Shown here in pieces: positions 7,036 through 63,701 of a stretch of DNA of 64,000 nucleotides (the first letter of the stretch is position 1; each line of letters begins with the position of its first letter). The stretch covers positions 6,716-70,715 of the forward strand of contig CAYMKI010000002.1 in NCBI GenBank assembly GCA_964390695.1, read 5' to 3'. Below the pieces are notes generated by a model that was not told the origin of the DNA, made no database searches, and was given only the letters and a program-made list of their open reading frames with translations. The DNA is from an uncultured bacterium. GTDB taxonomy: Bacteria; Chlamydiota; Chlamydiia; Chlamydiales; Parachlamydiaceae. The translations under genes and the position numbers were made by a program.

Positions 7036-7815
7036 TTATTTGCGGATTCTGATTCTTGGTACCGAACCTTTGAAAGATGGACCTAAATCCGTTTTAATCC
7101 TTCTGTTAAAACCAGATTGGTAGCCATTTAAAATAGGAAATTTTGGCTCTGAATCTGTTGTAACTGGATCTTCTTGCGCCTGATCTTGTGTGCCAGTCAA
7201 AAACTTAGCGGTCGTATTTCCTCCTGCTGCTTTTGACAATAGTCCAGCCGTAGCCAAATTGTTTATTCCGCTAAAGAGATTTGTATTGCCGGCATTATCC
7301 AAAGCATTTTTTGTCTGCAAGTACTCAGCCTGATTTTGTCTGTCATTCTGAGCGATCGCATTGTTAGCGTTGCTTAGTCGGCCAAAGGCATTCTCGCTGA
7401 ATTGATCACCTTGTGCTTGCACTTGGGCACTGGCATCATTGGCCTGAGCGGTGGAGCCTGCTGCTACTGCTGCTATTTTATTGGCGTCACCTCCAAACAT
7501 CCGCTGGGCACCCGCAATTTGATTAGCCTGATTCCTTCTGATACGTTCTTCCGATTGGGCTGCGCCAGGCGCTCTTCTGGAATACGCTTGTTGTTTCGCC
7601 AAATCACGATTCATAAGCAACTCCGGAGGAATGTAATTGCTCTTTTTTAGATTGTTAGCCTCGTTTTTCTGAAAAAATCCTCCTATTGTTTGTGCGAGTG
7701 CCGGTATAGCAGCTATGGCCAATGGTCCTAAAAGCAGATATCCATTAGTTCTTTTGGATAAAAGAGACGCTACAATACTCCAGAACAAAAATTGAAATAT
7801 GACTATCTCTTCCAT
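7036..7815 (-). CDS. membrane-anchored Gln/Ala/Asn-rich hypothetical protein (probable internal virion protein)
   Basis: 259-aa ORF with hydrophobic N-terminal segments followed by a low-complexity Q/A/N-rich region. Confidence 0.55.
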   Translation of the reverse strand: MEEIVIFQFLFWSIVASLLSKRTNGYLLLGPLAIAAIPALAQTIGGFFQKNEANNLKKSNYIPPELLMNRDLAKQQAYSRRAPGAAQSEERIRRNQANQIAGAQRMFGGDANKIAAVAAGSTAQANDASAQVQAQGDQFSENAFGRLSNANNAIAQNDRQNQAEYLQTKNALDNAGNTNLFSGINNLATAGLLSKAAGGNTTAKFLTGTQDQAQEDPVTTDSEPKFPILNGYQSGFNRRIKTDLGPSFKGSVPRIRIRK

Positions 7816-12379: not shown

Positions 12380-13005
12380 TATCTTTGAACTTTGATCCCA
12401 ATATCAGCATTCCCGTCTAACCTTTTGTCTTGTATCGGCATTCCCTTAATCATCTGTCTCACTTTTTCAATAATCTCAATCTGGTGCTCAGGGTATATCG
12501 GCAAGAAATCGTCTATCCCTACTGAGTCAGGGCTAGCCACAACCAAATCAACCAGAACCTTAGCTAGCTCGATGTCATTATCGAAGTAAACCTTTCGGCC
12601 CTTCGTCCAATAACTCTGTTGATCAGGATCCAGATCAGCGCATGGAAGATTGCGACTGACTGCCGGATTATGTCTCGGAATGAAAACGTTCGTAGGGTCA
12701 GTTACAGGTGCCACCGCAGCAAGTCCTTTGTTAAAAGGGAGGCTAATGTAGAAATCTGGGAGATCAATGTACTTATTAGTTCCAGTGCCTTGAACATCCA
12801 CTGTGTACGTGACTACCATCAAATTCAGCACACTTCTATCGTCTTGCGCCAATTTCTCGTAAATCCGTGGCATCAAAACCGTGTTGGACATCTGCCGTAC
12901 GTACTGGATAACGTATGCTTCCGACAAATTAGAGTCCGTGGACTGTCCTCCTCCGCTCTCGAGTTCGATTATTTCTCTTGCCAGTTTTCGAAGTGTTACG
13001 CTCAT
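12379..13005 (-). CDS. hypothetical structural protein
   Basis: 208-aa ORF; its start overlaps the neighbouring stop. Confidence 0.55.
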   Translation of the reverse strand: MSVTLRKLAREIIELESGGGQSTDSNLSEAYVIQYVRQMSNTVLMPRIYEKLAQDDRSVLNLMVVTYTVDVQGTGTNKYIDLPDFYISLPFNKGLAAVAPVTDPTNVFIPRHNPAVSRNLPCADLDPDQQSYWTKGRKVYFDNDIELAKVLVDLVVASPDSVGIDDFLPIYPEHQIEIIEKVRQMIKGMPIQDKRLDGNADIGIKVQR

Positions 13006-29452: not shown

Positions 29453-31858
29453 CTATTTTGAGGTTGCTGCTGGTCTTGCTTTAGCTGCAGCAATTTGGAA
29501 CTGGCCCATCTTCTCAACTTTCATAAGCTCAGTCATTCGGTTTTGTTCTTCAACAGATAAGGCAATATCCTTTTCTAGCTTGTACTTGACCTGCAATAAG
29601 AAGGCATCATCGCTTGCTTTCTGTTTTTGAAGATACATTTTGCCTTGTAATTCCTGATCTAAAAGTGAACTCTTGGTTTGCATTTCAAGTTGCAAGGTTT
29701 GTTGCTGGGCCTGCGCAGCCGCATTAGCAGAATTGATATTTTTGCTTTCCTCGGCCTTGTACTGGGCTTGCATCTGCTGATTTTTGAGGTCGTTCTTTTG
29801 CTTCCGGTACATCTTCAGCAAGCGGATGGCTCGGTAGATGTTTGGCTCGGTTTGAATTTCGAATGCCTCTTCTTCGTATAAAGTGCCGGCCAAAATACCT
29901 GACTTGCAGTATTCATTGATCCAAGCCTTAATTTCTTGTGTAGGCTGTTTCATAGAGTAGCAACCTAGTTCATGCCCTGAGACATCTGACAACAACTTCA
30001 ATACTGCCATGGCTTGCAGCCCTAGAGCCTCGGTGTATTGCGGTGCCAAGCCGGTTGCCGCCATCCCGGATATTGTCATTATCGTTCTTTGATGAGTCCC
30101 GAGGTTAATGGAATCAAATGCAAAGTGCAATCCTCGTAGCGCATCGTCAGTAGCGCCTGATGCCATGGTGGCCACTGCTTTGCCCATTTCTGAGTTCGGA
30201 GTGCTGGCATCCGTCAATTCGTTCAATCCAATCTGATCACGAAGCAAGTTTATATCTTGGATCATGTACTGGAAGTGCTTCTCCATGGCGTTTGAGATAC
30301 CACCTGACATCTCTTGTATTGGCTTGAAGTTGGATAAATTGCCAGAAGCGTCCCTTCTTCTCCAAAGAAGCACGCCAGTTTCAAAATATATTTGAAGAGC
30401 CTCTTTAGGGGTAATAGTTTTTCCGCTTTTCCCCTCAATTGAGATATCTTGAAGTGCTGTGAATTCTATCGCTGGGCCGGCAGGAACAGATTTAGCCGCA
30501 TGGTGTTGGAATTGCAGCCATTGGATCTGAATATTATCCAGTGTCGGGATAATGGTTTCGATTATACACTTCTTTGTTTTGTAGATAGTGTATGGGGAAA
30601 CTGTTTTCCCTAGGTTAGACTCATTCTTGAGCATGTCCTTGCTTTTGCCGTATTTGAAGACGTACTTGGTGCCCTTAACCCATAAGCATTGATACTGATT
30701 GTCTATTGAGTACCTAATAACTTTGGATTCATTCGACTCATTGAATTTTTGCTCGGTGACTCCTTTTTGCTCTAACTTTTTCCACCAAGAATATTCTTTA
30801 CGATTCACAAATACATCTCCAAACTTGTTCTTTCCTTGGAGGTATGTTTCTACATCTGGAGAGAACCACACAAAGTCACCAACGGTAATTTTTGTGTTAT
30901 CCCATGGATAGCACATATTTTCTTTGTAGTAATCTTCAACTCCAAAATTATCAAATGAACGACCTTGCGCCTGCTCCGCTAATTTCTTCCACTCTTCTTC
31001 ATTGCTCAGTTCATCTCCTACAATTTCTTTTAATTGGCCAATGGTCAAATCCCAATACTCGCCAATATACTTTGCATCGTCAATCAAACTTTTGTTTGAA
31101 GTCGAGCATACCATTCTTTCAGGCACACATCTACGTCTTAATACTTTGTCGCGGACGCGATATGTTTTTGTAACACCTACTCCGACCTCTACCAAATCTC
31201 TTGCTACTTCTGCTAGGATGTCTGTGTAGTTGTCCTGCTCGTTCATGACTTTGATCAAGTCCTGCATGATCATGCAGTAGTCCTCTTTGTAAAACATCTG
31301 CATAAAGATGTTCAACTCGGCCATGTTCTGAGGAAGAGGCATCACATCATCCTCAACCGGAGATTCAAAAGGTATGCCAGTAGCTTTAGAAACATTATCC
31401 AAAAAGTCTTTGTTGATAATGTACTCCTGCAACTCCATTCTTTTCTTGCGCTTCTCATCCTGGGCTCGCTTGTCCACGGAGTAAACGCCAATGTCATTGT
31501 TTTGCTTTAACAACTTTCCGATAAGAACGTTGACGTATTTTGATGCGATGTCTAATATCTCCCAGTTGAGAGCACGATAACTTGTCGCTGTCGGGTCCTT
31601 CTTGCTCTTTTCGTTGATTCCGAGTTTGGGTTTGTACTTGTCGATGCGTTGATTGCCCCGAGCATAAGAGCGCCACAAGTCATATTTATTGATCGAATTC
31701 GCACCTATGGACATACCTTGAAAAAGGCCATTGCTTTCTCCGCTTATGCCAACAGCATCTATCGCTTCGGCCCATTTAAGAGCATATTCTTTAGATTGTT
31801 TCTGCTCTGGGCTTACAAAGTCCGAAGGAAAGTTGGGGTTTTTCTTGTCAAATTCCAT
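29453..31858 (-). CDS. portal protein (size/position call)
   Basis: 801 aa, immediately downstream of the large terminase. Gln-rich coiled C-terminus. Confidence 0.65.
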   Translation of the reverse strand: MEFDKKNPNFPSDFVSPEQKQSKEYALKWAEAIDAVGISGESNGLFQGMSIGANSINKYDLWRSYARGNQRIDKYKPKLGINEKSKKDPTATSYRALNWEILDIASKYVNVLIGKLLKQNNDIGVYSVDKRAQDEKRKKRMELQEYIINKDFLDNVSKATGIPFESPVEDDVMPLPQNMAELNIFMQMFYKEDYCMIMQDLIKVMNEQDNYTDILAEVARDLVEVGVGVTKTYRVRDKVLRRRCVPERMVCSTSNKSLIDDAKYIGEYWDLTIGQLKEIVGDELSNEEEWKKLAEQAQGRSFDNFGVEDYYKENMCYPWDNTKITVGDFVWFSPDVETYLQGKNKFGDVFVNRKEYSWWKKLEQKGVTEQKFNESNESKVIRYSIDNQYQCLWVKGTKYVFKYGKSKDMLKNESNLGKTVSPYTIYKTKKCIIETIIPTLDNIQIQWLQFQHHAAKSVPAGPAIEFTALQDISIEGKSGKTITPKEALQIYFETGVLLWRRRDASGNLSNFKPIQEMSGGISNAMEKHFQYMIQDINLLRDQIGLNELTDASTPNSEMGKAVATMASGATDDALRGLHFAFDSINLGTHQRTIMTISGMAATGLAPQYTEALGLQAMAVLKLLSDVSGHELGCYSMKQPTQEIKAWINEYCKSGILAGTLYEEEAFEIQTEPNIYRAIRLLKMYRKQKNDLKNQQMQAQYKAEESKNINSANAAAQAQQQTLQLEMQTKSSLLDQELQGKMYLQKQKASDDAFLLQVKYKLEKDIALSVEEQNRMTELMKVEKMGQFQIAAAKARPAATSK

Positions 31859-31872
31859 GGATTCGTGATTTG

Positions 31873-34089
31873 TTATTCTGTAAAGTTACCATTTGGGCCA
31901 TTATTGTCAAATGTATCAAACCAGTCCGAGATATTGCCGCTTGGCTTTTCATCTATTTCTGATACTTTTTCAGCGTGAACCAATGTGAATCCTGATGATA
32001 CCGTTGCATCCGATTTTGTGGGGTTAGAACTATCAAAATTCAACCAGTCTTCAATCGTATTATCGAATGGCATCCGGTGAATGTGGTTGTTTATAAAAGC
32101 TATCAACCTTCGCGTGTAGTAGTCAATCACCTCTGACGTGGAGGCATAACCAGCATCATCCGAGTTGACTTGCAGGTCTACCTCTGACTGAACAAAGTCC
32201 TTTGGATACGCTAAGAACTTCTCCAGTCCATTTGTTTCGAAATAGGTATTTAGCGAGGGTACGTTTCGCTCGGGTAGAAGTTTGCAGCCCAAAAAGATAC
32301 ACGCCATAGCCGTGTCTTCAAAAGTAGTTTCAGGATCTTCCGGTCGGTTTATGTACTCAAAAATAAAGTTGTGCGATGTCCAGTCCTTTTTTTCTTTTCC
32401 GTAATCGGCTATGCCGTCATACAACCTGAATCCGTGAATTGCAGCCTTAGAAGCTCTAGGATCCTTTGTCTTTGAGTATTTGATAGGGTCACTGCCTATT
32501 CGGAATAGGTGATCATTCTTTGGATACTTCAGTTTCCGGGAGAACCCCTTAGAATCATAACCCCACTCTTCTCCAAAGTTGTTCAATATCTTTGCTTGAT
32601 CGGGGTTTTTAATCATGCTGTACTCATCTGGAAACCATGCCCAGTTAAACCTGCCTGCATGATCATCGCGCTCCCACCATACCGGACCAAATTTGTCTTT
32701 AACCCAGTATAGGTTTCCGCGAACGTATGGAGGTTTGGCCATTCTATTTCGAATGTGCTCAAGCCTGTCCGACAAAAGCATGACGTTAAAAATAGACTTG
32801 CTTTGATCTTTAATGAAAGCCTCTGTTTCATTTCGAGGGCTTTTGCGCATACGACTGCCCAACTTCTTTAGGTCAGATTTTAAAGCGTCAAAGTCATTTT
32901 GAATTTTAATGTTTGCTATCTCTCTATTTACATTCCCAAACTTATTGCATGGAGGACCGTAATTCTTTCCGGTAACATCAATGTATGGCTCAAGGGATGT
33001 GTCAGTGTCTAATGATGAAATCAGATGTCTATGAATTTTTGATGTTGTAAATCCGTTGCCATCCAACTGCTTCATGTCGCTATCCTTCCATAATTTGTGG
33101 CATTCGTCTCCACCTTCGTTCATCTCTTCAACCGTAGTTGTTTTTCTTAGGACTCCGATTTTGCGATGGTTACGAAAAACGGTTTTAAGATTAGTTTCAT
33201 GCCGAACATAAACGTCAGCTACTATCTTTGGATTACACTTGCCCACCTCATCTTCTAACACGTCCCCCAGCGTCTCCTTATCCAATACTTTTTCACCTGG
33301 AGCCACGGCAAAGATTGTGCTTATGAGTTCTAGGTCTGGACCAAATTCTAAGTTGGTGCTCTCTTTCCCTCGAATTGATCTACGCCTGAATACAAGTTCT
33401 GACTGAGTATTCGTTCCGTGGGCATACTCTGGTTTGAAAAATTTAGGAAGAGCGTTAAATAATGGGACTGTTTTTGCCTGAATTAATACTCCTTTTGCAC
33501 CTACTTCAAAATCATTGCTTTGAAGTGCTGCTCGGTGATTATGAAACATTGTTGCCCTATTTGTTATGCAGGCCAACTCTTCCGAGGTTTTGCCTGTTCC
33601 CCGGCTCGCAATGAACAAGTAACCCATGCTCTTAGGATTCTGTTCGCACCACTTCCTTATATAAAAATTGTCTCTTGAAAATCTGTAATAAAATGGATAG
33701 CCATCATTTTCTTTGTGATCAAACTTGCAATAAGTCAAATACCAATAATGATGTTCGGTTAAATACGTCAACTCGCCATCTATCATTATGTGTACTCCAA
33801 ACATTCTACGCTTCCACTCTCTCCTTCGGTAGCGCTCGCACATAGGATCGACAAACATGGTTTTCTTTTTGCCCCGTAAAATCAATTCCTGATCTTGACC
33901 TTGCTTGTATTCTTCTTCAAGTGATCTTTCGAGATACCATTTCGGAATGGGCTCGCGCTTCCAGTATTGTTCTTCTCGGTGAAGTCCGTAGTTGATTATC
34001 TCTGACTTGTCGGCTGGCGGTGGAGGAATGTGGCATTTAAAACCTTCGCCTACAATTATTGATGTGCCACCTTTATACGGATAATACAT
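31873..34089 (-). CDS. terL: terminase large subunit
   Basis: 738 aa; Walker A-like FIASRGTGKTSEE; position upstream of the portal. Confidence 0.8.
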   Translation of the reverse strand: MYYPYKGGTSIIVGEGFKCHIPPPPADKSEIINYGLHREEQYWKREPIPKWYLERSLEEEYKQGQDQELILRGKKKTMFVDPMCERYRRREWKRRMFGVHIMIDGELTYLTEHHYWYLTYCKFDHKENDGYPFYYRFSRDNFYIRKWCEQNPKSMGYLFIASRGTGKTSEELACITNRATMFHNHRAALQSNDFEVGAKGVLIQAKTVPLFNALPKFFKPEYAHGTNTQSELVFRRRSIRGKESTNLEFGPDLELISTIFAVAPGEKVLDKETLGDVLEDEVGKCNPKIVADVYVRHETNLKTVFRNHRKIGVLRKTTTVEEMNEGGDECHKLWKDSDMKQLDGNGFTTSKIHRHLISSLDTDTSLEPYIDVTGKNYGPPCNKFGNVNREIANIKIQNDFDALKSDLKKLGSRMRKSPRNETEAFIKDQSKSIFNVMLLSDRLEHIRNRMAKPPYVRGNLYWVKDKFGPVWWERDDHAGRFNWAWFPDEYSMIKNPDQAKILNNFGEEWGYDSKGFSRKLKYPKNDHLFRIGSDPIKYSKTKDPRASKAAIHGFRLYDGIADYGKEKKDWTSHNFIFEYINRPEDPETTFEDTAMACIFLGCKLLPERNVPSLNTYFETNGLEKFLAYPKDFVQSEVDLQVNSDDAGYASTSEVIDYYTRRLIAFINNHIHRMPFDNTIEDWLNFDSSNPTKSDATVSSGFTLVHAEKVSEIDEKPSGNISDWFDTFDNNGPNGNFTE

Positions 34090-37988: not shown

Positions 37989-39479
37989 TCAAAATGGCGT
38001 TTCAAAATCATCTTTGGGCAATTCCGAAGTAGGATCTTTGTAGCGGCTCGTTCCAAACTCTTGTCTTTTGGTTGTGGTCATTGGTGTTGAGTCGCTGATC
38101 CATTCGGTGAACTTGGTGTACTTGCCGATGAACTTCTGTTTTGCGGTGCCGGTTGAGCCTGCTCGGTGTTTTTCTATGATTGCTTCGCAGAGTCCATGTG
38201 TGGAATATCCATCTTCATCCTGAGTGATTTTATAGTACTCGGGCCGGTATAGGAACATAACCACGTCAGCTTCTTGCTCAATAGATCCTGACTCACGTAA
38301 ATCACTTAGCTGCGGTCTTTTTACTCCACCCCTTGTCTCCACTGATCTGCTAAGTTGTGAAAGTGCGATAACTGGAATGTCTAATTCCTTAGCAATTCCT
38401 TTCAATGTTCGAGTGATTGATCCTATCTCTTGATCCCGAGTTATCTGCCTGCCAGTTTCATTCACCCCTTTTATTAATTGTAAATAGTCAATGATAAGAA
38501 GTTTGATTCCATACTTAGTCTTCATTCTCATGGCGCGAGCACGAAGCTCAATGATAGTCAGGAATGGACTATCGTCAATATGCAAAGGAAGACTGGCAAT
38601 TTTTCCAATAAATTCATTCAATCTATCTTGTTCGTATCTGTCTAAAATACCCTTCTTTATTTTTTCTGAATCAATCTCTGCCTCGGATGCAGAAATTCTT
38701 TCAACAAGTTCCAAATCTCCCATCTCAAGACTAAATACACCAACCGGATTTCCTGCCTTTGCAACATTAACCCCTGCTTGCATGGCAAAAGAAGTCTTTC
38801 CCATGCCCGGGCGTGCCGCAATTATTATCAGGTGAGTTCGAACAAATCCATTTAGAATCCTGTCTACCTCAAGAAAACCACTTGGAACACCCATGGTAAC
38901 CCCAGACTGCCTTGATTTTATCTCGTTCGATAAGGCATAGCATATATCCACAATCGACTTATCTCCTTTCGCGCTGATCGCATGGTCCTGAATCTCTTGC
39001 AGGCGGAGGTTTGTTTTGGCTACAATTTCAAAAACATCTGAGGTATCTTCGTAGGAATCTTGGTGCACCTCGGATGCCATTTGGATCATCTCGCGTTTCA
39101 TGGCCATCTCGACTAGGATTGCCGAGTGATAAGCGATGTTTGCGGCTGAACTAACCTTTGAAACAAGTTCAGCTATGTAATAAGCCCCTCCAACAAGTTC
39201 TAACTTACCATTCTTCTTGAGACGAGCCACAACTGTTCGCATGTCAATAGGATTGGCCTCTGAAAATAACTGCTGAATTGCCTCGTAAATTGTCGCATGT
39301 TGTTCCTTGTAGAACATTTCCTTGCGAAGAACTGAAGCTACGTCAATGATTGCGTTCTTCTCGCACATTATTGCCCCAAGAACTGCTTCTTCCACGTCTG
39401 TTGCCTGCGGTGGAACCTTGCCCAGCGTTGATGCCAAGTCAGTGACGTACTTAACCGGATAGTTTTTTCGTTCGCTCAT
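37989..39479 (-). CDS. dnaB: replicative DNA helicase (DnaB family)
   Basis: 496 aa; LIIIAARPGMGKTSFAM Walker A; LLIIDYLQL; SQLSRSVE; typical DnaB N-terminal domain. Confidence 0.9.
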   Translation of the reverse strand: MSERKNYPVKYVTDLASTLGKVPPQATDVEEAVLGAIMCEKNAIIDVASVLRKEMFYKEQHATIYEAIQQLFSEANPIDMRTVVARLKKNGKLELVGGAYYIAELVSKVSSAANIAYHSAILVEMAMKREMIQMASEVHQDSYEDTSDVFEIVAKTNLRLQEIQDHAISAKGDKSIVDICYALSNEIKSRQSGVTMGVPSGFLEVDRILNGFVRTHLIIIAARPGMGKTSFAMQAGVNVAKAGNPVGVFSLEMGDLELVERISASEAEIDSEKIKKGILDRYEQDRLNEFIGKIASLPLHIDDSPFLTIIELRARAMRMKTKYGIKLLIIDYLQLIKGVNETGRQITRDQEIGSITRTLKGIAKELDIPVIALSQLSRSVETRGGVKRPQLSDLRESGSIEQEADVVMFLYRPEYYKITQDEDGYSTHGLCEAIIEKHRAGSTGTAKQKFIGKYTKFTEWISDSTPMTTTKRQEFGTSRYKDPTSELPKDDFETPF

Positions 39480-40363
39480 CTGTCCTTCGGAATAAAGTAC
39501 TTGGTTTCTTCTGTTTTGTTGAATTTGCTCTCACTCCACGATTTTAGCCTGGCCGCAAGGTCCCAGTGCTCTTCATCCTCCCATCGGAGTTTGGTTGGAA
39601 CCGGTTTGTTCTCCGGTTGCGACCAGTGGCGATAGAACGAGTTGAGAATATCTCTTGGGTATTTGTCCACGTAGGCAGCCAGAAGTGTCGTTAACTCGCC
39701 TTTCTTATCCGATATTGACTTCAATTCGGTCAGGTAGCATGGTATCTTGTCAAAGTTGTTGTTTGCCCACTTTTTGAGACGAAGGTTCAAGTCCCATGCC
39801 TTGGAGTCTCTTTCCTTCTCAAACAGCATATTCAATGCCTTTTTGCCTGATGGCTGCGACCAGTAGGCCACAAAGTTTTCAAGCATCTGACCAGTGTACG
39901 TATCTTTTCCGAATTCAAAAACTTCTTTTTGAAACGACTCTTTTCTAATCAATAATTCATTAACACTTTCATTTTCATCTTCATTTCCCATAAGGTTACC
40001 CTTATGGTTATCCGATAGGTTATTTTTAGGTTTTACTTTAGGTTTACCACTAGCTTTCTCATCTTTTGGCCTACCCCCTAAATTTCCGTTTAATCGCCTA
40101 CTTTCAGTAAATCTGTTCCTTTTTTCGGTTTCCTGCTCTAATCTATCATTGTACCAAAGCCCATCTTGATCTATGCTAAATTTGGATTTTAGGCTATCCG
40201 AAACAGAACCTAAAATAAACCTAATGGTTTCCTCGCTCATCCTACCTTGTTGGTGCATGAGGCATAGTATTGTAATGTACTTTCCACGGTCCTCCCAGTT
40301 AAGCGTAGCCACGCCAGTGTAGAAGTCTTGAGAGTAGAACAGAAATGCCGGATCTTTTGCCAT
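39476..40363 (-). CDS. DUF1376 (YdaU-like) replication-associated protein
   Basis: AFLFYSQDFYTGVATLNWEDRGKYITILCLMHQQG at the N-terminus. Coupled to dnaB. Confidence 0.65.
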   Translation of the reverse strand: MAKDPAFLFYSQDFYTGVATLNWEDRGKYITILCLMHQQGRMSEETIRFILGSVSDSLKSKFSIDQDGLWYNDRLEQETEKRNRFTESRRLNGNLGGRPKDEKASGKPKVKPKNNLSDNHKGNLMGNEDENESVNELLIRKESFQKEVFEFGKDTYTGQMLENFVAYWSQPSGKKALNMLFEKERDSKAWDLNLRLKKWANNNFDKIPCYLTELKSISDKKGELTTLLAAYVDKYPRDILNSFYRHWSQPENKPVPTKLRWEDEEHWDLAARLKSWSESKFNKTEETKYFIPKDR

Positions 40364-42488: not shown

Positions 42489-43004
42489 TTATTCCTTTAC
42501 TTCCCAATCTTCTGCAAAACAATCAGAAGAAGAGGGAACCCATGAATCAGCCCTGCCCTCTGAATTTACAATCAGCATTTGGTTGGCATAGTTGATCGCT
42601 TGGTTTCTTTCCAACATCACATCTTTAGCTGATTGAGGAAGTGATTGCATCTTAGGAATAATATCAGTTCCTATGACGGCAGGTATTTGTTTTACAATAA
42701 ACATTCCCTTTCCGTTCCATCCAGAACGGTGAACTAATTTGCCTTCTTTTAAGGCTTCAATTGCTTGTCCAAAATTCATTGCTTTCTTGTTTGGTTGGTA
42801 CGCCATCCCGCGCTTTAGTTTATTTCTATGGTACTCAATAATCTCATTCAAACAGGTATCGCACTGAGTTTTGCAAAGATGTTTTGGCCAATGCTTTTTT
42901 AGCGTTCCATTGTATTCAGCGTATTGCTTGCATCGAAATGGGGGCCTAGGTAACTCTTCAGGCTCTTCGATTAAGTCAAATGGATTTATAAACCGACTGG
43001 CCAT
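42489..43004 (-). CDS. DUF2829 (Tad2-family) domain protein with a Cys-rich N-terminal extension
   Basis: MNFGQAIEALKEGKLVHRSGWNGKGMFIV ... WVPSSSDCFAEDWEV matches the DUF2829 pattern. The ~75-aa N-terminal part has CxxxC/CxxC. Confidence 0.7.
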   Translation of the reverse strand: MASRFINPFDLIEEPEELPRPPFRCKQYAEYNGTLKKHWPKHLCKTQCDTCLNEIIEYHRNKLKRGMAYQPNKKAMNFGQAIEALKEGKLVHRSGWNGKGMFIVKQIPAVIGTDIIPKMQSLPQSAKDVMLERNQAINYANQMLIVNSEGRADSWVPSSSDCFAEDWEVKE

Positions 43005-44766: not shown

Positions 44767-45015
44767 TTAATTTTTCAATCCCTGACGCAGCATGTAACGC
44801 AATTCTTGTTCGCGTTTTCTTTCTAGTTTTAGGTATTCTACATAAACGTCAATTTTAGCCTGATCGGGAGGATCTATCGAATCACCGGTTTCAGCCAGTA
44901 GCAAATCTTGAACGTACCTCAGTTCTGATTTAATTTTCTCTTCATGCTCGCGAACCCTTTGCTCATACTCCCTCACATGGAGGAAGTCATTGAGCATTCG
45001 TAGGAATTTTTTCAT
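44767..45015 (-). CDS. hypothetical small coiled-coil protein
   Basis: 82-aa ORF. Confidence 0.5.
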   Translation of the reverse strand: MKKFLRMLNDFLHVREYEQRVREHEEKIKSELRYVQDLLLAETGDSIDPPDQAKIDVYVEYLKLERKREQELRYMLRQGLKN

Positions 45016-46007
45016 GGCTTTACATTTCTTTCAAGTGTGGCAATAACATCTCCTTTCTTAATCAGCAGGTATTTTTTGCCTGCAAGTTCTATCTCCTGAC
45101 GGTCGGACTGACCAAAGATAACCGTAGTGCCAGGATTAAATTCGCTGTCGCCTTCGTGCACAACTACACCTTTTTTGGTCATTTTCTTTTTCATGAATAT
45201 GCCGGAAACAGTTGAATCCGGTTCATCGAGTGCGGAAACCAGCATGTGCCCTCTGATCGGGGTGAACTCGCCATCTACCTCTTTGGCAACAATATGGCGC
45301 TGGCGGATGGCAAAGTACTCGGTATTCTCAATCTTGTTGATCCAGTCTGCATTCCTGCGGTACCATATCTTTTGACCCACCTCTACCTCAACTTTGTCTC
45401 CAATCAGTGGACTTCCAATGTGCCGGACAAAGCCTACCAAGAACTTGTACTCGGGCTGCACCTTGCGCTGGATCCATTGATCTTTGGGTTTGGGGATTAG
45501 ATTGCCGTCCGCATCCTTTAGGTTGGTCATAACTGGCAACAGGATATCATCCCACGTCTCAAAATCGGGGTCAATTAGAACATACGAACCGATCGGAATG
45601 ATTACGCCATCCCGGACGGCACAGATAATCTGCTCGTAGCTTACCTTAAAATACCATGTTTTGTTGGGGTGCACACCTTCTTCTTTGACAAGGTTGCGCA
45701 TCATCATGGTGTTAAAATGGAAGTATATGCGGCTACCGACCTGCACTTCTTGGACTACATCAGAAGTGTACTTGTAATCAAATGGGCTGCTATCTGCCGG
45801 TGCCGGGCTGCCACGGTGCTCTTGCATGAATGGCTTTCTTGTTAACTGGAGCGGTAGCGAAACTACTTCTCCGTAGGTCCTAACATGCCTCTGAGGGTCA
45901 AATTTAGGGTCGAGGAATATCTCCTTCCCGTCTACACCTTTAAAGCTCGCTTTATCATTGAAGAGCGCATCGGTTTTAAATATGAGATAGTTAGCAAATG
46001 GCTTCAT
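45012..46007 (-). CDS. hypothetical protein with up to three GroES-like beta-barrel repeats
   Basis: YGEVVSLP...VGSRIYF; VGFVRHIGSP...VGQKIWY; KGVVVHEGDSEFNPGTTVIFG...KKYLLIKKGDVIATLE. Confidence 0.45.
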   Translation of the reverse strand: MKPFANYLIFKTDALFNDKASFKGVDGKEIFLDPKFDPQRHVRTYGEVVSLPLQLTRKPFMQEHRGSPAPADSSPFDYKYTSDVVQEVQVGSRIYFHFNTMMMRNLVKEEGVHPNKTWYFKVSYEQIICAVRDGVIIPIGSYVLIDPDFETWDDILLPVMTNLKDADGNLIPKPKDQWIQRKVQPEYKFLVGFVRHIGSPLIGDKVEVEVGQKIWYRRNADWINKIENTEYFAIRQRHIVAKEVDGEFTPIRGHMLVSALDEPDSTVSGIFMKKKMTKKGVVVHEGDSEFNPGTTVIFGQSDRQEIELAGKKYLLIKKGDVIATLERNVKP

Positions 46008-50767: not shown

Positions 50768-51216
50768 GCTATTTTACCCTCCTTCAAAATCCTGAAATAA
50801 GCCTTATGGTACTTTTGCAGTCTTGCATAGTCTGAAAGTTTGATTTCCGTTAATCTGGTAATGTCCATGTTATCCAGAAGATCGGCTTTTTTGACTTCGA
50901 TAGCCCATGCATCCGTCAATATTTGGGAGATGTAATCATCGTAATCCCAATCCCTTTTTCTGGTCAGCACAACAACGCTATCGACAATGTTTTTACCGAA
51001 AAGCGCCCTCAAAGACTTCTCATTCCATTCCGGGCAATCCTCCAATAGATCATGCAGCAACGCGATGATGAACAAATGCTCTCTATCATGGAATGAGTTG
51101 GCAACCCGTTTCAAGTGGTTTATGTATGGCATACCGGCCAAATCTTTCTTTCCTTGAAAAGAATGTTCCGCAATTTTTAAGGCTAATTCTTTATGGTCCA
51201 TATCAAAAAATATCAA
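50764..51216 (-). CDS. HD-domain small alarmone hydrolase-like protein (RelA/SpoT hydrolase family)
   Basis: AGMPYINHLKRVA...IIALLHDLLEDCP...FGKNIVDSVVVLT...VKKADLLDNM. Confidence 0.7.
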   Translation of the reverse strand: MIFFDMDHKELALKIAEHSFQGKKDLAGMPYINHLKRVANSFHDREHLFIIALLHDLLEDCPEWNEKSLRALFGKNIVDSVVVLTRKRDWDYDDYISQILTDAWAIEVKKADLLDNMDITRLTEIKLSDYARLQKYHKAYFRILKEGKIA

Positions 51217-52240
51217 TTTGTCTATTCCTGTTCATTATAGCGTACTCTACCCTTTTCTCTGCAATATCTACTTCCTCCGGAGACTGATCAATGCCCACGC
51301 CATCCATAAACTCATAGGCTCCGGCTTTCAATGTAGACCCGCTGCCCATGTAGGGATCCAAAAACTCGCCTCCTATTGGATTCACAAGTCTCAGATAGTA
51401 CCGCATGAGGTTAGTCGGCTTTACTGTTGGGTGACTATTTACGACTTTACCCTCATTCCGATCAGCACGACTTGCCTTACCGCAATAAAAGAATCTTGCT
51501 GCACTTCCTTCACTAGATTCATGTATCTGTTTTGTAGAGCCAGATGGAGCACCTAAAGAATTTCCAGTATTAGTATACTCATAGGATTTTTTCATTGCTC
51601 CTGACTTCTGGTAAGGAAATAGGGACACTACTTCCTCGCTGCCATCATGCTGAATATTTGCTGGCCATCTTCCATTTTCTCCACCGGTGACATTTACCGC
51701 ATGAGCTGCACCACGAGTGAACATATCAGTACTTCTATGACCGTAGTTTCCGCCTTTGATGTTTGTTTGGCTACCAAATTTCCAAGGTTCTCCGGGTATT
51801 CTGCAGGCTGCAATATTCAAAACCCCTGTTCCCCAGCGATCGTAATTTTCCTGAACGGTACCATCCAAAGGCTTTCTCGCCAACACAATAGGCTCGATCG
51901 CAGGCTTCAAAGCGGTCCCCAGTTCTTCGGTTATGTTATGACTCTTTGGAAATCCGCTACCATAAAGCCAACCAAGCATATCCCTTATCTCAAATCCGGC
52001 ATCTTCCACATTACATACCATGCGATGATAGGTTCTTGTTCCCCCAAAAGCAAGCAAAAACGCACCTGGCCGAAGAACGCGATACACGGATTCCCACTCT
52101 TTTACCGATGGAACCGAATAATCCCACTTCTTACCCATGAATTTTAGCCCATAAGGAGGATCTGTCACGCAGGAATGAAACGTATTATCCCCATACTCCT
52201 TGAGCACATCTTCCTGCTTACCTTGATGCATTATCATCAT
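51203..52240 (-). CDS. DNA N6-adenine/N4-cytosine methyltransferase (beta class)
   Basis: CVTDPPYGLKF (motif IV) ... HPTVKPTNLMRYYLRLVNPIGGEFLDPYMGSGSTLKAG (motif I). Confidence 0.85.
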   Translation of the reverse strand: MMIMHQGKQEDVLKEYGDNTFHSCVTDPPYGLKFMGKKWDYSVPSVKEWESVYRVLRPGAFLLAFGGTRTYHRMVCNVEDAGFEIRDMLGWLYGSGFPKSHNITEELGTALKPAIEPIVLARKPLDGTVQENYDRWGTGVLNIAACRIPGEPWKFGSQTNIKGGNYGHRSTDMFTRGAAHAVNVTGGENGRWPANIQHDGSEEVVSLFPYQKSGAMKKSYEYTNTGNSLGAPSGSTKQIHESSEGSAARFFYCGKASRADRNEGKVVNSHPTVKPTNLMRYYLRLVNPIGGEFLDPYMGSGSTLKAGAYEFMDGVGIDQSPEEVDIAEKRVEYAIMNRNRQIDIF

Positions 52241-52491
52241 TACTCTATCACATTAAACCCACCCTTACCAATCTTCCCATTCCCTCCCCTTCCATGCACC
52301 TTTACCGCCTCAACCCTAACACAGAACCATCCACGCTCCTCCGACCCCTTACCGACCTTTACCACAAAAGGCCCACCATTCTCCCCCTTACGCTTCATAG
52401 TCCCGTAATTACCGCCTATCAAAACACTCAACCCCTTCAACGTGGTTGCGCACTTAACATCAAAACTCAATACCCCTATCCAGACTTTCAT
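52240..52491 (-). CDS. hypothetical Gly/Lys-rich small protein
   Basis: 83-aa ORF with a 1-nt overlap to the MTase start. Confidence 0.4.
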   Translation of the reverse strand: MKVWIGVLSFDVKCATTLKGLSVLIGGNYGTMKRKGENGGPFVVKVGKGSEERGWFCVRVEAVKVHGRGGNGKIGKGGFNVIE

Positions 52492-52733
52492 AACCCATTT
52501 GTATTTACCTCAAAAACTCGCGTTTCTAAAACCTGATCAAAACTATAAAACTCAACAATAGCGCAGTTATAACCAATCTCAATAACCCTCCCAATAGTAC
52601 ACCACTTAGTTACCGGTGACCAAAAATTCTTTTTATAATCAAACACCAACTCCGCCCACCCATTTCCTATTACCTTTATCATAGTTGCGCTCTTATCCCG
52701 CATCAAAAGTAACAAAATGATACTTCTATCCAA
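52488..52733 (-). CDS. hypothetical protein (first gene of the leftward operon)
   Basis: 81-aa ORF. Confidence 0.45.
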   Translation of the reverse strand: MDRSIILLLLMRDKSATMIKVIGNGWAELVFDYKKNFWSPVTKWCTIGRVIEIGYNCAIVEFYSFDQVLETRVFEVNTNGL

Positions 52734-52807
52734 ATAAATAAGTGAAATATTTAAGAAAAAAGCCTGTATAAGTGCACTTTTGAGGAATCTTCCACAAATG
52801 AGGGGGC

Positions 52808-52896
52808 CAAAAATCGCGTCCCCGAACGTTTTTAAAAGAGGGGGTGGGGGTCGATTCCAAAGCGCAATCGCGGATTTTTGAAAATGTGGCCACCTT
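52808..52896 (+). repeat. three spaced copies of AATCGCG
   Basis: AAAAATCGCG at 52808-52817, AATCGCG at 52865-52871, AAATCGCG at 52888-52896. Confidence 0.6.
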
Positions 52897-52927
52897 CTAA
52901 AATCGCGCGAAAACTAACTTTATCAAG

Positions 52928-52954
52928 TTGCATAGTTTTATATAAACTGTGCAA
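52928..52954 (+). promoter_or_regulatory. operator/promoter A: TTGCA-N17-TGCAA
   Basis: TTGCATAGTTTTATATAAACTGTGCAA. It faces the repeat region and no ORF follows. Confidence 0.6.
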
Positions 52955-53023
52955 AATGCTGAAAATAGGCCACTATCGCATGAATGTGTGATTTTTGGTC
53001 TCAAATATCGTTCTCCACCAGTA

Positions 53024-53275
53024 AAAATGAGGGTTTTTGCAACAGTGTTGCATCTTGAGGATTTTGTGCAGATATGCACATGAAAATGATGTTTTCGCAG
53101 TAAAAACGAGGTTTTATTGTGCATATGCTATTATTTTTTAGTGTTTGTTGAGGATTTTTCAATTGTATTCGGGATTTTATTGAGAGTATTTCAATGAAAT
53201 GGTGGATTTGTTGATAGGAATGAGGTTTTGTGATGTGGTGCGCACCAATTTATTTATAGAACGTGGTTTTTGGGC
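53024..53275 (+). repeat. array of at least nine same-orientation GWGGnTTTT(G) repeats, several followed by short palindromes (iteron-like)
   Basis: Copies start at 53029, 53057, 53088, 53108, 53150, 53171, 53202, 53222 and 53263. Spacings are 28, 31, 20, 42, 21, 31, 20 and 41 bp. The plus strand is very C-poor. Confidence 0.7.
53037..53052. promoter_or_regulatory. near-copy of the palindrome (TTGCAAC-AGT-GTTGCA) inside the iteron-like array
   Basis: TTGCAACAGTGTTGCA. Confidence 0.5.
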
Positions 53276-53310
53276 TTTTTTTTAGGATAATGCTTTAAAA
53301 TGGGCTGGAA

Positions 53311-53460
53311 ATGGCGCGCATCGTTTTTTTGTTTTGTCTGGCTGTTTGTTCTTCGCTGGCTTCCGCCTGCCTGCTGCGCTGTCTCTGCCTTTCCTTCGGG
53401 GAACCACTTCTTTTGCCGAGTGACGGATCATCTTTCTTCGGGCCGATAGAGAGTGAGGCT
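53311..53460. other. GC-rich pyrimidine-skewed core of the non-coding region
   Basis: Local GC is clearly above the flanks. Contains a cUUCGg-type hairpin (CTTTCC-TTCG-GGGAA) and CTTCGGGCCGATAGA (53436-53450). Confidence 0.5.
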
Positions 53461-53496
53461 AAAATTACGATGGCTTGGAGAGGCTATAATGAGGGG

Positions 53497-53610
53497 AAAA
53501 TGTGGGGTTGATTTTGCGGGTAGTAAAATGGGTTGAAAAGTGGTGCGATTTCGGTAAGGTCGGTAAAGTTGGGTTTTGGGGCAAAGTGGGAAATTAGCGA
53601 AATAAAGGGG
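53497..53610 (+). repeat. phased A-tract/G-tract repeats AAA(A)(T/G)(T)GGG
   Basis: Copies start at 53497, 53525, 53536, 53565, 53583 and 53604. Confidence 0.55.
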
Positions 53611-53768
53611 GTCGAGAATCGAATATAGCCGTACAAAGGTACAGGATTTGGCGAATATCGCGGTGTGGAGCGTTTGGAACTGGTAATTTGAGTAAAATAG
53701 GTATTTTGGTGGTTTTCAGACATTTAATATAGAGAAATTAAAAAATATCAACATTTGTTTGCATTGAA

Positions 53769-53795
53769 TTGCATAGTTTACTTATAATTGTGCAA
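53769..53795 (+). promoter_or_regulatory. operator/promoter B: TTGCA-N17-TGCAA, upstream of the rightward gene block
   Basis: TTGCATAGTTTACTTATAATTGTGCAA followed by the TTAACCAAAA leader and an ATG at 53819. Confidence 0.65.
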
Positions 53796-53818
53796 GAATT
53801 AACCAAAACAACAATTTT

Positions 53819-53938
53819 ATGAAAACTTTCAGAACATTATTTATCATCGCATCAGTAGCAATAATTGCTGCCTTCATCTACAAATTGGTAGAGAAGGTTA
53901 ACAACCCAATGGAGTTTCACAACATAATCCAAAAGTAA
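53819..53938 (+). CDS. 39-aa single-TM mini-protein (below the ORF-track cutoff)
   Basis: Hand-translated MKTFRTLFIIASVAIIAAFIYKLVEKVNNPMEFHNIIQK. First ORF after promoter B. Confidence 0.4.
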   Translation: MKTFRTLFIIASVAIIAAFIYKLVEKVNNPMEFHNIIQK

Positions 53939-54504: not shown

Positions 54505-54942
54505 ATGAGCACAAGAGCAAACATTATTGTGAAAGAAGGAAATGAAAACCTTATTTTTTATCGCCACAGTGACGGTTACCCAGAAGGTACGATTCCTTCT
54601 TTAAAAAAGTTTGTCGATTTAATGAAGTCTGGCGTTGTCAGGAACAATATTAGCCAAGGTTGCGGCTGGCTTATTATTTTGGGTGCACTAGAATACGCAT
54701 CTATTCCAAGAATATTGGAAGCAGATGAAGACGGAAGCCCGAAGACATGGGAAGATATTCTTATAACAGATTGGAAGGTTGGAGCCTACGAGCCAACAAC
54801 AGGGATACATGGAGACATTGAGCACCTGTACTTGATTGACATGGATTTATTTAAGATTACAGAAATTCAAATAACCAAAAATTGGAAGACGGCAAAAGTC
54901 TTATACGTCCATTATGACGCAAACTCCACTAAGGGAGTATAA
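54505..54942 (+). CDS. hypothetical protein
   Basis: 145-aa ORF (IFYRHSDGYPEG...). Confidence 0.55.
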   Translation: MSTRANIIVKEGNENLIFYRHSDGYPEGTIPSLKKFVDLMKSGVVRNNISQGCGWLIILGALEYASIPRILEADEDGSPKTWEDILITDWKVGAYEPTTGIHGDIEHLYLIDMDLFKITEIQITKNWKTAKVLYVHYDANSTKGV

Positions 54943-54962
54943 AGTTATTAGGCTTAGTGCGT

Positions 54963-54978
54963 CCTGCCTTCGGGCAGG
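54963..54978 (+). promoter_or_regulatory. perfect cUUCGg tetraloop hairpin
   Basis: CCTGCC-TTCG-GGCAGG, followed by GGTTAACCAAAC. Confidence 0.6.
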
Positions 54979-55010
54979 GGTTAACCAAACAAAGTCCTTC
55001 GGGCAACAGT

Positions 55011-61400: not shown

Positions 61401-61775
61401 TTATAAAGGTGGCAATCCATCTTCGTAGATATCCATAATCGGAAATGAGGAAGGAGCCGGACTTGGGGAGGATGGCAAGTCCTGGCTCTTCGGGGCTGGG
61501 TTGACGGAACCGGCAGGCGCTTTCACGTTTGAGAATGTCAACGGGATCTTTTTTGTTTTCTGATAAGGATTGGGCCACAGATCATCGAAAGATCTTCCGG
61601 TGTAGGCCATGATTTTGTGGTACTGATCCAAAGTTAATTTCCCGGCTTTGAGCCTGTATCTAAAGGCTTGGTAGGTGGTTCCCAAAATGTCTTTGGCAAA
61701 GTCCATCGGGCTGAAGCCTGCTGATCTAATTGCCTTGGTTAAATCGCTTTTCTTATTCACTTTTTGATCCATCAT
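61401..61775 (-). CDS. HTH transcriptional regulator (Cro/CI-type switch protein)
   Basis: DLTKAIRSAGFSPMDFAKDILGTTYQAFRYRLKAGK helix-turn-helix. Divergent from the integrase operon across an operator-bearing switch. Confidence 0.6.
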   Translation of the reverse strand: MMDQKVNKKSDLTKAIRSAGFSPMDFAKDILGTTYQAFRYRLKAGKLTLDQYHKIMAYTGRSFDDLWPNPYQKTKKIPLTFSNVKAPAGSVNPAPKSQDLPSSPSPAPSSFPIMDIYEDGLPPL

Positions 61776-61830: not shown

Positions 61831-61857
61831 TTGCACATTTCCATTATATTTGTGCAA
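61831..61857 (+). promoter_or_regulatory. operator/promoter C: TTGCAC-N15-GTGCAA in the switch region, upstream of the integrase operon
   Basis: TTGCACATTTCCATTATATTTGTGCAA. It contains TATATTTG (an exact TAnnTTTG) and is followed by the TTAACCAAAA leader and an ATG at 61875. Confidence 0.7.
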
Positions 61858-62609: not shown

Positions 62610-63701
62610 ATGACCCCCAGAGTAACCTTCCGATCCATTAAGGATCATCTGAAAATACGAATCAAGATCCACGGACAGAAGCCCAGTTCCTACGACACTG
62701 GTATTTTCTGCCCTGCCGACAAGTTCGATGCTAAAAAGCAAATATCCGGCTATCCTCAAGTCCAGACCTACATGCAGTCAACAACTGAGGCTATCCGCAA
62801 GATGTTCATGCCAGGCGCTACGGCTGAATCCCTCTGGACTGAGCTTCTAAAACGCCAATCTATTGCCAATGGCTCACACAAAATTTCAGACGCATTCGAA
62901 TACTACCTGCGGACTGCTGACGTAACAGAGTCAACGAAAACAGGTATTCGCACCCTGCAATCCAAACTTGAGTTATCTGGGCTCTACCAACTCCCCATTA
63001 AGGATTTGACCGGAGCCAAAGTGCGCGAGTTCTTAACAGCATTGAACCTGAAAGAATCAACCACTTACAAAAACAATTCAAAGCTCAATACCATTCTGAA
63101 GAGATACTTGTCCGATCAGGGACTTGACATTAAAGTACCCAAGGCCGTGAGCAAGAAGCCCAAAGTATCAGATGAGGCCGAATACCTTATCTGGAATGAA
63201 CTCAAAGACCTACTTGCCAAAGAAGTAGAAGACGAAAGCGATAGCCGAGGTAAGGATCTGTGGTGTCTAATGGCTCTCACTGGACTTTCTGTTTCTGATC
63301 TTCTCAAGTTTGACCCCAAAAAGAACATCTCCGAGGATGGAAAGTGGGTGCACTACAACCGGAAGAAAACAGATAGCAAATGCACCATCCCTCTTCTGCC
63401 CATGGCAAAAGAAATAATCGAGCGCCATGACTGGCCGGCAAAGGTTTCTGTTCGCTGGCTGCAATACAAATCTACTGGCATTGTGAGTGAACTTGTTGGC
63501 CGAAAGATGAAATCCCACTCGGCAAGGAAGACATTTGGAACGGTGGCATTGGAATGGGGATACAGTTTAGATGCTGTCTCTAAGTTCTTAGGACACGCAA
63601 ATCCGATCATAACGGCCAACGTGTACGCCAAGGTCACACAGGCCAAGATTGAGCGCGAGATGAACGCTATCCCGGATAAAATAAAAGCAATGATGATATG
63701 A
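62610..63701 (+). CDS. int: tyrosine recombinase / phage integrase
   Basis: 363 aa; ...MKSHSARKTFGT (HxxR) ... LGHANPIITANVYAKV (catalytic Tyr); Bacteroidota-type N-terminal domain. Confidence 0.9.
   Translation: MTPRVTFRSIKDHLKIRIKIHGQKPSSYDTGIFCPADKFDAKKQISGYPQVQTYMQSTTEAIRKMFMPGATAESLWTELLKRQSIANGSHKISDAFEYYLRTADVTESTKTGIRTLQSKLELSGLYQLPIKDLTGAKVREFLTALNLKESTTYKNNSKLNTILKRYLSDQGLDIKVPKAVSKKPKVSDEAEYLIWNELKDLLAKEVEDESDSRGKDLWCLMALTGLSVSDLLKFDPKKNISEDGKWVHYNRKKTDSKCTIPLLPMAKEIIERHDWPAKVSVRWLQYKSTGIVSELVGRKMKSHSARKTFGTVALEWGYSLDAVSKFLGHANPIITANVYAKVTQAKIEREMNAIPDKIKAMMI

Follow-up and report, generated by a model that had tools for sequence, protein, structure and literature searches.

A structured non-coding spacer between divergent early promoters of a temperate phage, a candidate lytic origin of replication

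The 64-kb stretch of DNA analysed here, hereafter the window, covers the greater part of a temperate tailed phage's 70.8-kb contig, and it contains a single large non-coding stretch, a spacer of ~1.1 kb (52683–53818). The spacer is cis-acting DNA lying between two outward-reading early promoters, PL and PR, and is neither a gene nor a leader. Most likely it is either an origin of replication or a chromosomal attachment site; sequence alone cannot decide between the two, and we rank slightly ahead the reading in which it is the lytic origin of replication of a temperate Bacteroidota phage, to which we assign a probability of roughly 0.38. A previous sequence-only reading of this DNA had proposed an origin or a phage attachment site (attP), and both of these DNA-level interpretations survive as the best two, although the transcript that was part of the same proposal is not supported. 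The spacer is a real and structured inter-promoter region of a known general kind, and a new one without sequence relatives. The readings are not mutually exclusive, the spacer being long enough to hold operators together with either an origin or an attachment site.

Distant metagenomic relatives were fetched using as anchor a 145-aa protein encoded at 54505–54942 (59–66% amino-acid identity), and the layout of the spacer recurs, with no sequence similarity, in four of them: L081, L088, L285 and, in part, L083. As the layout is shared and the sequences are not alignable, it is the architecture, and not a conserved sequence, that appears to be under selection. To our knowledge, neither a replication origin nor an attachment site has yet been defined in these uncultured temperate phages of Bacteroidota, and since at least four related metagenomic phages share the layout, one experiment would annotate the whole set.

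A gene-free spacer between outward promoters

The spacer carries no credible gene. Three-nucleotide periodicity is absent throughout 52734–53770 (z about −1, versus +3 to +10 in the neighbouring genes), and the small open reading frames (ORFs) of the spacer have no relatives in the fetched loci, which bears out the proposal that no credible ORF lies between the divergent gene blocks. A small signal-peptide-like protein of 66 aa that could be read from 53311–53511 was rejected as a candidate, its ORF having no periodicity, no homologue and no counterpart in L081. Beyond the spacer, a greedy ORF call leaves no gap of more than 300 bp in the window. A known or stably folding RNA is ruled out by Rfam and by folding scores: the region has no Rfam match at the gathering threshold or at E ≤ 5, the whole spacer folds no better than shuffled sequences (z = +0.66 on the plus strand and −1.75 on the minus strand), and its sub-regions give z between −1.0 and +1.3, including the GC-rich island and the central element described below. 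No terminator-like site was found in the region.

A promoter consensus of TTTG and TAnnTTTG is established for Bacteroidota, and promoters of this type stand at both borders of the spacer. The leftward promoter PL (52704–52734, minus strand) has a TTTG at 52734–52731, a 19-nt gap and TACTTTTG at 52711–52704, and is the sole perfect TTTG-N19-TAnnTTTG match in a pattern scan of 52600–53900. An ATG at 52682, 22 nt past PL, gives the first leftward ORF a 64-aa version and is most likely where the first leftward gene starts; the left border of the spacer thereby moves from 52734 to 52683. The rightward promoter PR (53758–53795, plus strand) has a TTTG at 53758–53761, a 21-nt gap and TATAATTG at 53783–53790, and overlaps one copy (53769–53795) of a 27-nt element, TTGCAyAGTTT...TGTGCAA.

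This element is present in three copies in the window, at 52928, 53769 and 61831 (the last with 3 mismatches), versus 0.34 expected. Copy 1 (O1, 52928–52954), TTGCATAGTTT-TATAT-AAACTGTGCAA, is the best palindrome of the three, near-perfect with 2 mismatches to its own reverse complement, and a pattern scan finds no TAnnTTTG (−7) box on either of its strands; it is probably a repressor operator. Copies 2 (O2) and 3 each lie on a promoter, and the same leader, AATTAACCAAAAC, comes after both. Copy 3 (61831–61857, plus strand) has a perfect TATATTTG box and lies between a helix-turn-helix (HTH)-like gene (61401–61775, minus strand) and the plus-strand operon that holds the integrase gene. A reading of the element as an SOS box was discarded, its form TTGCAyA...TrTGCAA being neither a GGA-N5-TCC nor a CTAA-N5-TTAG palindrome; the published LexA-like (SOS) motifs of Bacteroidota differ from it (PMC8565304).

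Two consequences follow for transcription. First, an operator-bearing promoter at 52928–52954 pointing into the spacer had been suggested, and it is not established, because a −7 box is missing from both strands of copy 1. Second, the spacer is not a 5′ leader, because it lies upstream of both consensus promoters and these read outward; the alternative that it is only a long untranslated leader can thus be set aside. The mirror-image GC skew described below cannot be attributed to two 5′ leaders either, as the genes of the window, L081, L088 and L285 have consensus promoters directly beside them.

Repeats, composition and a recurring layout

There are two arms to the spacer, with a GC-rich island between them. 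In the first, array 1 (53024–53275, plus strand) consists of 9–11 units of the form (A/T)TG(A/T)GGnTTTT, phased at 10.2 bp in very C-poor DNA of 27–38% GC, and TGCA-type palindromes follow the first units; the four palindromes listed previously are all present in the sequence. Array 1 is the densest same-strand cluster of short repeats in the window. A loose form of the motif, G[AGT]GG?N?TTT, occurs 11 times on the plus strand and not at all on the minus strand of 53000–53300, where 0.57 is expected from the rest of the window (P ~3e-11), and 7 of the 26 window matches to G[AT]GGN?TTT[TG] fall in the same interval. The strict form, GWGGNTTTT, has 4 matches in the region and 12 window-wide, which is not above chance. 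The earlier count of at least nine GWGGnTTTT units thus holds as a same-strand cluster, but the strict motif fits only four of them and nine are reached by allowing one deviation per unit. Both the GGnTTT units and the A/T tracts of array 1 have a power peak at 10.2 bp that is reached by 0 of 500 dinucleotide shuffles, in agreement with the helical phasing that had been noticed before, and the phased A/T tracts give static curvature.

The second arm (53461–53757, plus strand) is likewise C-depleted, is rich in G runs, contains AAA(A)KGGG-type units and reaches a GC skew of +0.74. These units had also been described as a phased array; they are not helically phased, the signal in 53450–53720 being equalled by 115–348 of 500 shuffles. 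Elsewhere in the spacer, AATCGCG occurs three times on the plus strand (52812, 52866 and 52901), these being three of nine window copies and lying within 96 bp; the triplet had been reported at 52808–52896, and the three copies are real though their positions fall slightly outside that range. A GC-rich element at 52799–52850, with G5, C4 and G5-T-G5 runs (GAGGGGGCC...GTCCCC...GAGGGGGTGGGGGTCG), is defined by its sequence and has no significant fold.

The composition of the spacer is extreme. The plus strand contains 9.6% C in 52990–53300 and 8.0% C in 53450–53760, confirming a plus strand that is very poor in C (8–10%) on either side of the island. An absolute GC skew of at least 0.45 over 300 bp is found in the window only at 52051–52775 (negative), 53026–53350 (positive) and 53401–53825 (positive), and the cumulative GC-skew minimum of the window falls in the spacer. 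The island itself (53311–53460) interrupts the C-depleted DNA and has T over A; it is non-coding and has no stable fold. Its GC content of 0.55–0.58 and AT skew of −0.57 to −0.78 (53300–53450) match the GC-rich, pyrimidine-skewed core that had been described there. Stretches of 27% GC exist in the spacer; its least stable DNA is the PR promoter, placed 3rd to 7th among the segments of the window when these are 80 or 150 bp long. Adjoining the spacer, at 52240–52733, are two small putative leftward ORFs with an extreme G-over-C skew on the sense strand (to −0.8 on the plus strand) and weak three-nucleotide periodicity (z of 2.3 and 1.5), one of which has a weak relative in L083 (E = 0.001).

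In L081, L088, L285 and partly L083, a non-coding spacer of 0.65–1.05 kb lies between divergent promoters and has a central C-run/G-run element and mirror-image extreme GC skew; in all four the consensus promoters abut the flanking genes and the GC skew changes sign mid-spacer. The central C-run/G-run clusters (L081 6915–6975, L083 7885–7965 and L285 6140–6220) are comparable to the GC-rich element at 52799–52850. The 1.04-kb spacer of L081 has operator-like copies at ~7046 (partial), 7653 and 12414, the last (12414–12441) being the counterpart of copy 3, a C-rich followed by a G-rich arm, and a small GC-rich island (7340–7390) in the same relative place as that of the window, with no significant alignment between the two islands. 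In L088 a 0.69-kb spacer lies between a 229-aa leftward ORF and a small HTH-like rightward ORF. The spacer of L285 is 0.74–0.87 kb long, depending on the downstream ORF that is taken as the first plus-strand gene, and stands beside a RepL-like gene; two pairs of 21–22-bp tandem direct repeats (5909–5993) directly upstream of that gene, at the edge of the spacer, look like classical iterons or operators. The module in L083 is 0.66 kb long, phased and GT-rich. Only the PR region (53731–53809) aligns significantly with L081 (7615–7696; 0 of 100 shuffles); no other part of the spacer exceeds shuffles, and blastn between the spacers finds nothing.

Replication origin, attachment site or operator spacer

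Intergenic phage origins typically occupy such a position, between divergent gene blocks and with a consensus promoter at either border, and the repeat cluster of array 1, lying on one helical face, is a second feature that favours an origin. Further points in favour are the cumulative GC-skew minimum, the layout that the relatives keep without its sequence, and the RepL-like gene with its tandem repeats beside the spacer of L285. The functional steps that we infer would run as follows. An initiator encoded by the phage, or else a conserved factor of the host, would bind the 9–11 same-face units of array 1 and wrap the intrinsically bent DNA. When the repressor leaves the palindromic 27-nt operators (52928 and 53769), divergent firing of PL and PR would build up negative supercoils in the spacer, which would help to open neighbouring AT-rich stretches, and the primosomal protein (39476–40363) and DnaB (37989–39479) could then be loaded. 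The G-rich, C-poor strand running outward 5′ to 3′ may mark the two leading-strand directions, or it may favour RNA–DNA hybrids if the spacer is transcribed.

The closest parallel in layout is with Ceduovirus, whose origins are non-coding, lie between divergent gene blocks and fall into three types without intergroup similarity, each of which supports plasmid replication (PMC7150918). Like the c2, bIL67 and 923 types, the spacer is an ORF-free region of several hundred bp between divergent blocks with promoters at its edges, and its layout is kept among relatives while the sequence is not; between the Ceduovirus types, whose sequences are unrelated, the function is kept as well as the layout (PMC7150918). 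The c2 origin is experimentally defined (PMC7150918), and the database record of c2 contains a 611-bp intergenic origin with tandem early promoters; several differences are evident. The c2 segment is bracketed by two canonical tandem early promoters, one of which, PE1, gives a defined non-coding transcript, whereas here there are two same-orientation copies of the 27-nt element, the first of them lacks a −7 box, and the consensus promoters point outward. Moreover, c2 is strictly lytic and has a Firmicute host, whereas this phage is temperate with a predicted Bacteroidota host. There is no sequence similarity with known origin types (no blastn match for the region in 50,697 phage records); the likeness lies in layout. 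The spacer also resembles iteron origins (lambda ori, P1 oriR and plasmid oriV) in its same-orientation repeats on one face of the helix, sequence-directed bending and neighbouring AT-rich DNA, but it differs in that the array lies outside any initiator gene and is not accompanied by DnaA boxes. In lambda, nearby repressor-controlled transcription activates the origin.

Several observations weigh against an origin. First, iterons are near-identical repeats of 17–22 bp, whereas the units here are 9–13 bp long, degenerate and irregularly spaced at 20–42 bp; three or more near-identical direct repeats of ~17–22 bp are not present, Tandem Repeats Finder reports no array in the region, and the combination of single orientation and helical phase is found in array 1 only, phasing being missing in array 2 and in L081. 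Second, there is no DnaA-box cluster. Third, the cumulative-skew minimum cannot be separated from the effect of the change in gene orientation, and the least stable DNA of the spacer is the PR promoter and not the window minimum. Fourth, GGnTTTT units resembling these are also present in loci that gave no homologue of the phage primosomal protein, which is odd for initiator-specific iterons. Finally, an origin leaves unexplained the 25-nt identity to a chromosomal gene described below, and the function itself is deduced from sequence alone. A DnaA-dependent origin was rejected for want of a box cluster. An origin in the initiator/DnaB region or in other gaps was also rejected, there being no repeat array in or near the DnaB and primosomal genes and only scattered two-copy matches in the other short gaps checked; this lack of another candidate in the window speaks for the spacer. 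If the spacer is the origin, it would offer a handle for vector building and for reading replication from metagenomic coverage, and its unusually strong mirror-image C-depletion would be an origin signature.

The principal alternative comes from the island. The sequence-only reading had recommended a comparison of this core with host genomes, and one 23-mer chosen from the island was searched against 185,579 species genomes (one genome per GTDB species). It has a single exact match, in Parapedobacter indicus RK1 (Sphingobacteriia, Bacteroidota), where the identity extends to 25 nt (TGGCTTCCGCCTGCCTGCTGCGCTG, 53357–53381, plus strand). The edges of the match are sharp, with 17–26% identity in the flanks, which is the random level. 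It lies on the sense strand of uvrB, in codons for GFRLPAAL, inside a 677-aa ORF reading ...DFGFRLPAALDNRPL..., a conserved UvrB motif, at about codon 361–369. Under a zero-order model, chance alone would yield ~0.02–0.1 matches across all the genomes searched and ~1e-3 across those of Bacteroidota; in 2.3 Mb of phage DNA no excess of the 25-mer's k-mers is seen; and the translated spacer scores 9 of 15 against the UvrB motif, a score that 0 of 3000 random 1-kb chunks reach. These figures suggest that the match, of one 23-mer in one species, is probably not due to chance.

The spacer could accordingly be read as an attP, with its crossover core at 53357–53381 in the island corresponding to the uvrB codon block of the host, and with repeat arms and bent DNA on which the tyrosine integrase would assemble its intasome. 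Once integrated, the phage would divide uvrB in two, and PR and PL would stand at the ends of the prophage, both reading inward. We regard this as a possible though rather doubtful reading. Besides the match itself, which falls in the predicted host phylum, it is favoured by the presence of a tyrosine integrase gene that has no non-coding DNA adjoining it, by the spacer being the only large non-coding, repeat-rich region in the window (64 kb of the 70.8-kb contig), and by the anatomy of phased bends and direct repeats flanking a distinct core. In this respect the spacer resembles the attP sites of lambda, HP1, NBU1 and CTnDOT (Bacteroides), which have a short core identical to chromosomal sequence, arms with repeats and bends, and a tyrosine integrase. 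Unlike those sites, however, it is distant from the integrase gene, its candidate target is in the middle of a protein gene rather than in a tRNA gene or at a gene end, its candidate core has no dyad, and its repeat-bearing DNA extends over ~600 bp with all repeats in one orientation.

These differences carry weight. An attP is almost always adjacent to int, yet the integrase gene of the window is ~8.8 kb from the spacer and that of L081 ~10.5 kb. The target would be interrupted mid-gene, and the gene would not be reconstituted. Inspection of the 25-mer and its flanks reveals direct CGCTG repeats only, with no dyad and no inverted core-type sites. The homologous L081 integrase has no counterpart of the ~90-aa N-terminal extension of the window integrase, yet L081 has similar repeat units, and no Pfam arm-binding domain was detected in the window integrase. 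The spacers of the relatives have a uvrB-like motif at chance level only, the matched 23-mer of the L081 island has no match in the genomes searched, and a literature search turned up no uvrB-targeting prophage. An alternative natural site would be the convergent junction beyond the integrase operon, in the 6.7 kb of contig outside the window. A tRNA-type core was considered and rejected, as there are no tRNA genes in the 64-kb window and a GGGGGTCGATTCC motif resembles a T-arm only superficially.

The more specific form of the proposal, an attP with a 25-bp core that targets the GFRLPAAL codons in mid-uvrB from ~9 kb away, such that lysogeny would disable excision repair and excision would restore it, is more doubtful again. 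Were the uvrB match a true bacterial attachment site (attB), it would predict a host lineage within Sphingobacteriia, such as Parapedobacter, and a lysogeny-dependent loss of excision repair; it would be a new case, in Bacteroidota, of a prophage as regulatory switch, with both early operons at the prophage ends and reading inward.

Neither an origin nor an attachment site is needed if the spacer is simply the regulatory region of a lysis–lysogeny switch, in which a repressor bound to O1 (52928) and O2 (53769), 841 bp apart, would loop the curved DNA and repress PR, PL or both more tightly, the repeats serving as bending or nucleoid-protein sites. We consider this unlikely, although it explains the operators and the bending. 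Each of the three copies of the 27-nt element marks a control point, and two of these copies lie right on promoters whose leaders are identical; copy 1, the best palindrome, lacks promoter boxes; the same three-site arrangement is present in L081; in L088 the spacer lies between ORFs that are a candidate CI/Cro pair by length and position; and the phased A/T tracts provide static curvature. Long-range operator looping is established for lambda OL–OR and for the flanking sites of phage 186 (FL/FR), where a palindromic operator is likewise repeated at distances of hundreds of bp about divergent early promoters. In contrast to those pairs, the operators here enclose DNA that has no genes, is rich in repeats and is extreme in composition, and the repressor is putative. 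Looping does not need 0.6–1 kb of C-depleted DNA, a GC-rich island or a strand-specific orientation of repeats; L285 has a skewed spacer with no second copy of the operator; and phasing is absent in L081. Should the spacer prove to be neither an origin nor an attachment site, what is described here would still be a clear map of early control elements, comprising PL, PR and three operator copies.

The weakest of the alternatives, and one that we think improbable, is that a GU-rich, C-poor non-coding RNA or long leader of ~0.4–0.8 kb starts at the 52928 element, its C-depletion conferring resistance to Rho and its role being to prime replication or form R-loops, as has been proposed for c2 PE1-T, or to act as a protein sponge. 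RNA poor in C and rich in G has the opposite character to a Rho-utilisation site. In the window and in L081 alike, copy 1 points the same way as the two promoter copies; by inspection, that of L081 is readable as TTG-N19-TGCTTTTG; and the c2 PE1–PE2 interval likewise has, on its transcript strand, more G than C (skew +0.23) together with C5/G7 runs. The absence of a −7 box from the window copy 1, the outward direction of the consensus promoters, the lack of a terminator-like site or of an Rfam family at E ≤ 5, folding that is no better than that of shuffles, and the absence of alignable conservation between relatives outside PR all speak against such a transcript, whether as the activator of an origin or as the ~0.8-kb GU-rich RNA that had been envisaged. 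Finally, the spacer is not a pac or cos site, because the packaging genes (TerL, portal and HNH, 29.4–35.2 kb) are ~20 kb away.

Host, gene context and neighbouring features

We take the host to be a member of the Bacteroidota from the promoter type and leader features of the phage together with established knowledge of the phylum: a Shine–Dalgarno-like 4-mer precedes only 6 of 43 genes, the leaders are A-rich, and promoters of the form TTTG-N19-21-TAnnTTTG fit such a host. No close relative of the phage was found in any collection searched, and the proteins of the window are singletons. The 145-aa protein and the integrase have no relatives among the GTDB genomes, and searches of IMG/VR with the pattern TCCCCGAAYGYTTTTA and with the operator pattern returned unrelated coding matches only.

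The genes are arranged in two blocks. A long minus-strand block reaches ~52.7 kb and includes a giant ORF (1–5640) of more than 1888 codons that continues past the left end of the window; it is absent from the ORF list, so that the first 5.6 kb seem ORF-free. The same block encodes tail and head proteins, the portal (29453–31858), TerL (31873–34089), DnaB (37989–39479), the primosomal-like protein (39476–40363), a DUF3127 protein and a DNA methylase (51203–52240). The plus-strand block opens with the gene that starts at 53819 and includes the tyrosine integrase (62610–63701; PF00589, E = 5.6e-11 in Pfam), which has ORFs abutting both of its ends.

Several other features of these genomes were noted. 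Within the minus-strand block, an ORF at 42489–43004 has a Tad2-like (Thoeris anti-defence 2) domain (PF11195, E = 3e-21), and a 331-aa protein encoded at 45012–46007 has a C-terminal Cpn10 (GroES-like) domain, a domain also found in a protein of L083 (340–1011). A further locus with the 145-aa gene, L284, encodes two adjacent extracytoplasmic function (ECF)-type sigma factors (4280–5226).

The 145-aa protein itself (54505–54942, plus strand) belongs to a large conserved phage family, with 893 database matches at E ≤ 1e-5 and the invariant motifs FYRHSDGYP and WK.GAYEP, and it has no relative in Pfam, NCBIfam or PDB. Overlapping the 3′ end of its gene is a full-length Pistol self-cleaving ribozyme (54923–54985, plus strand; 47.2 bits, versus a gathering score of 34.5). 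In L081 there are two sub-threshold pistol-like matches (30.7 and 22.5 bits, covering the 3′ two-thirds of the model only), at 9988–10029 and 10510–10566, one on either side of the gene for the 145-aa homologue. The presence of a ribozyme or pistol-like matches beside this gene in both the window and L081 suggests that the gene family travels accompanied by pistol ribozymes.

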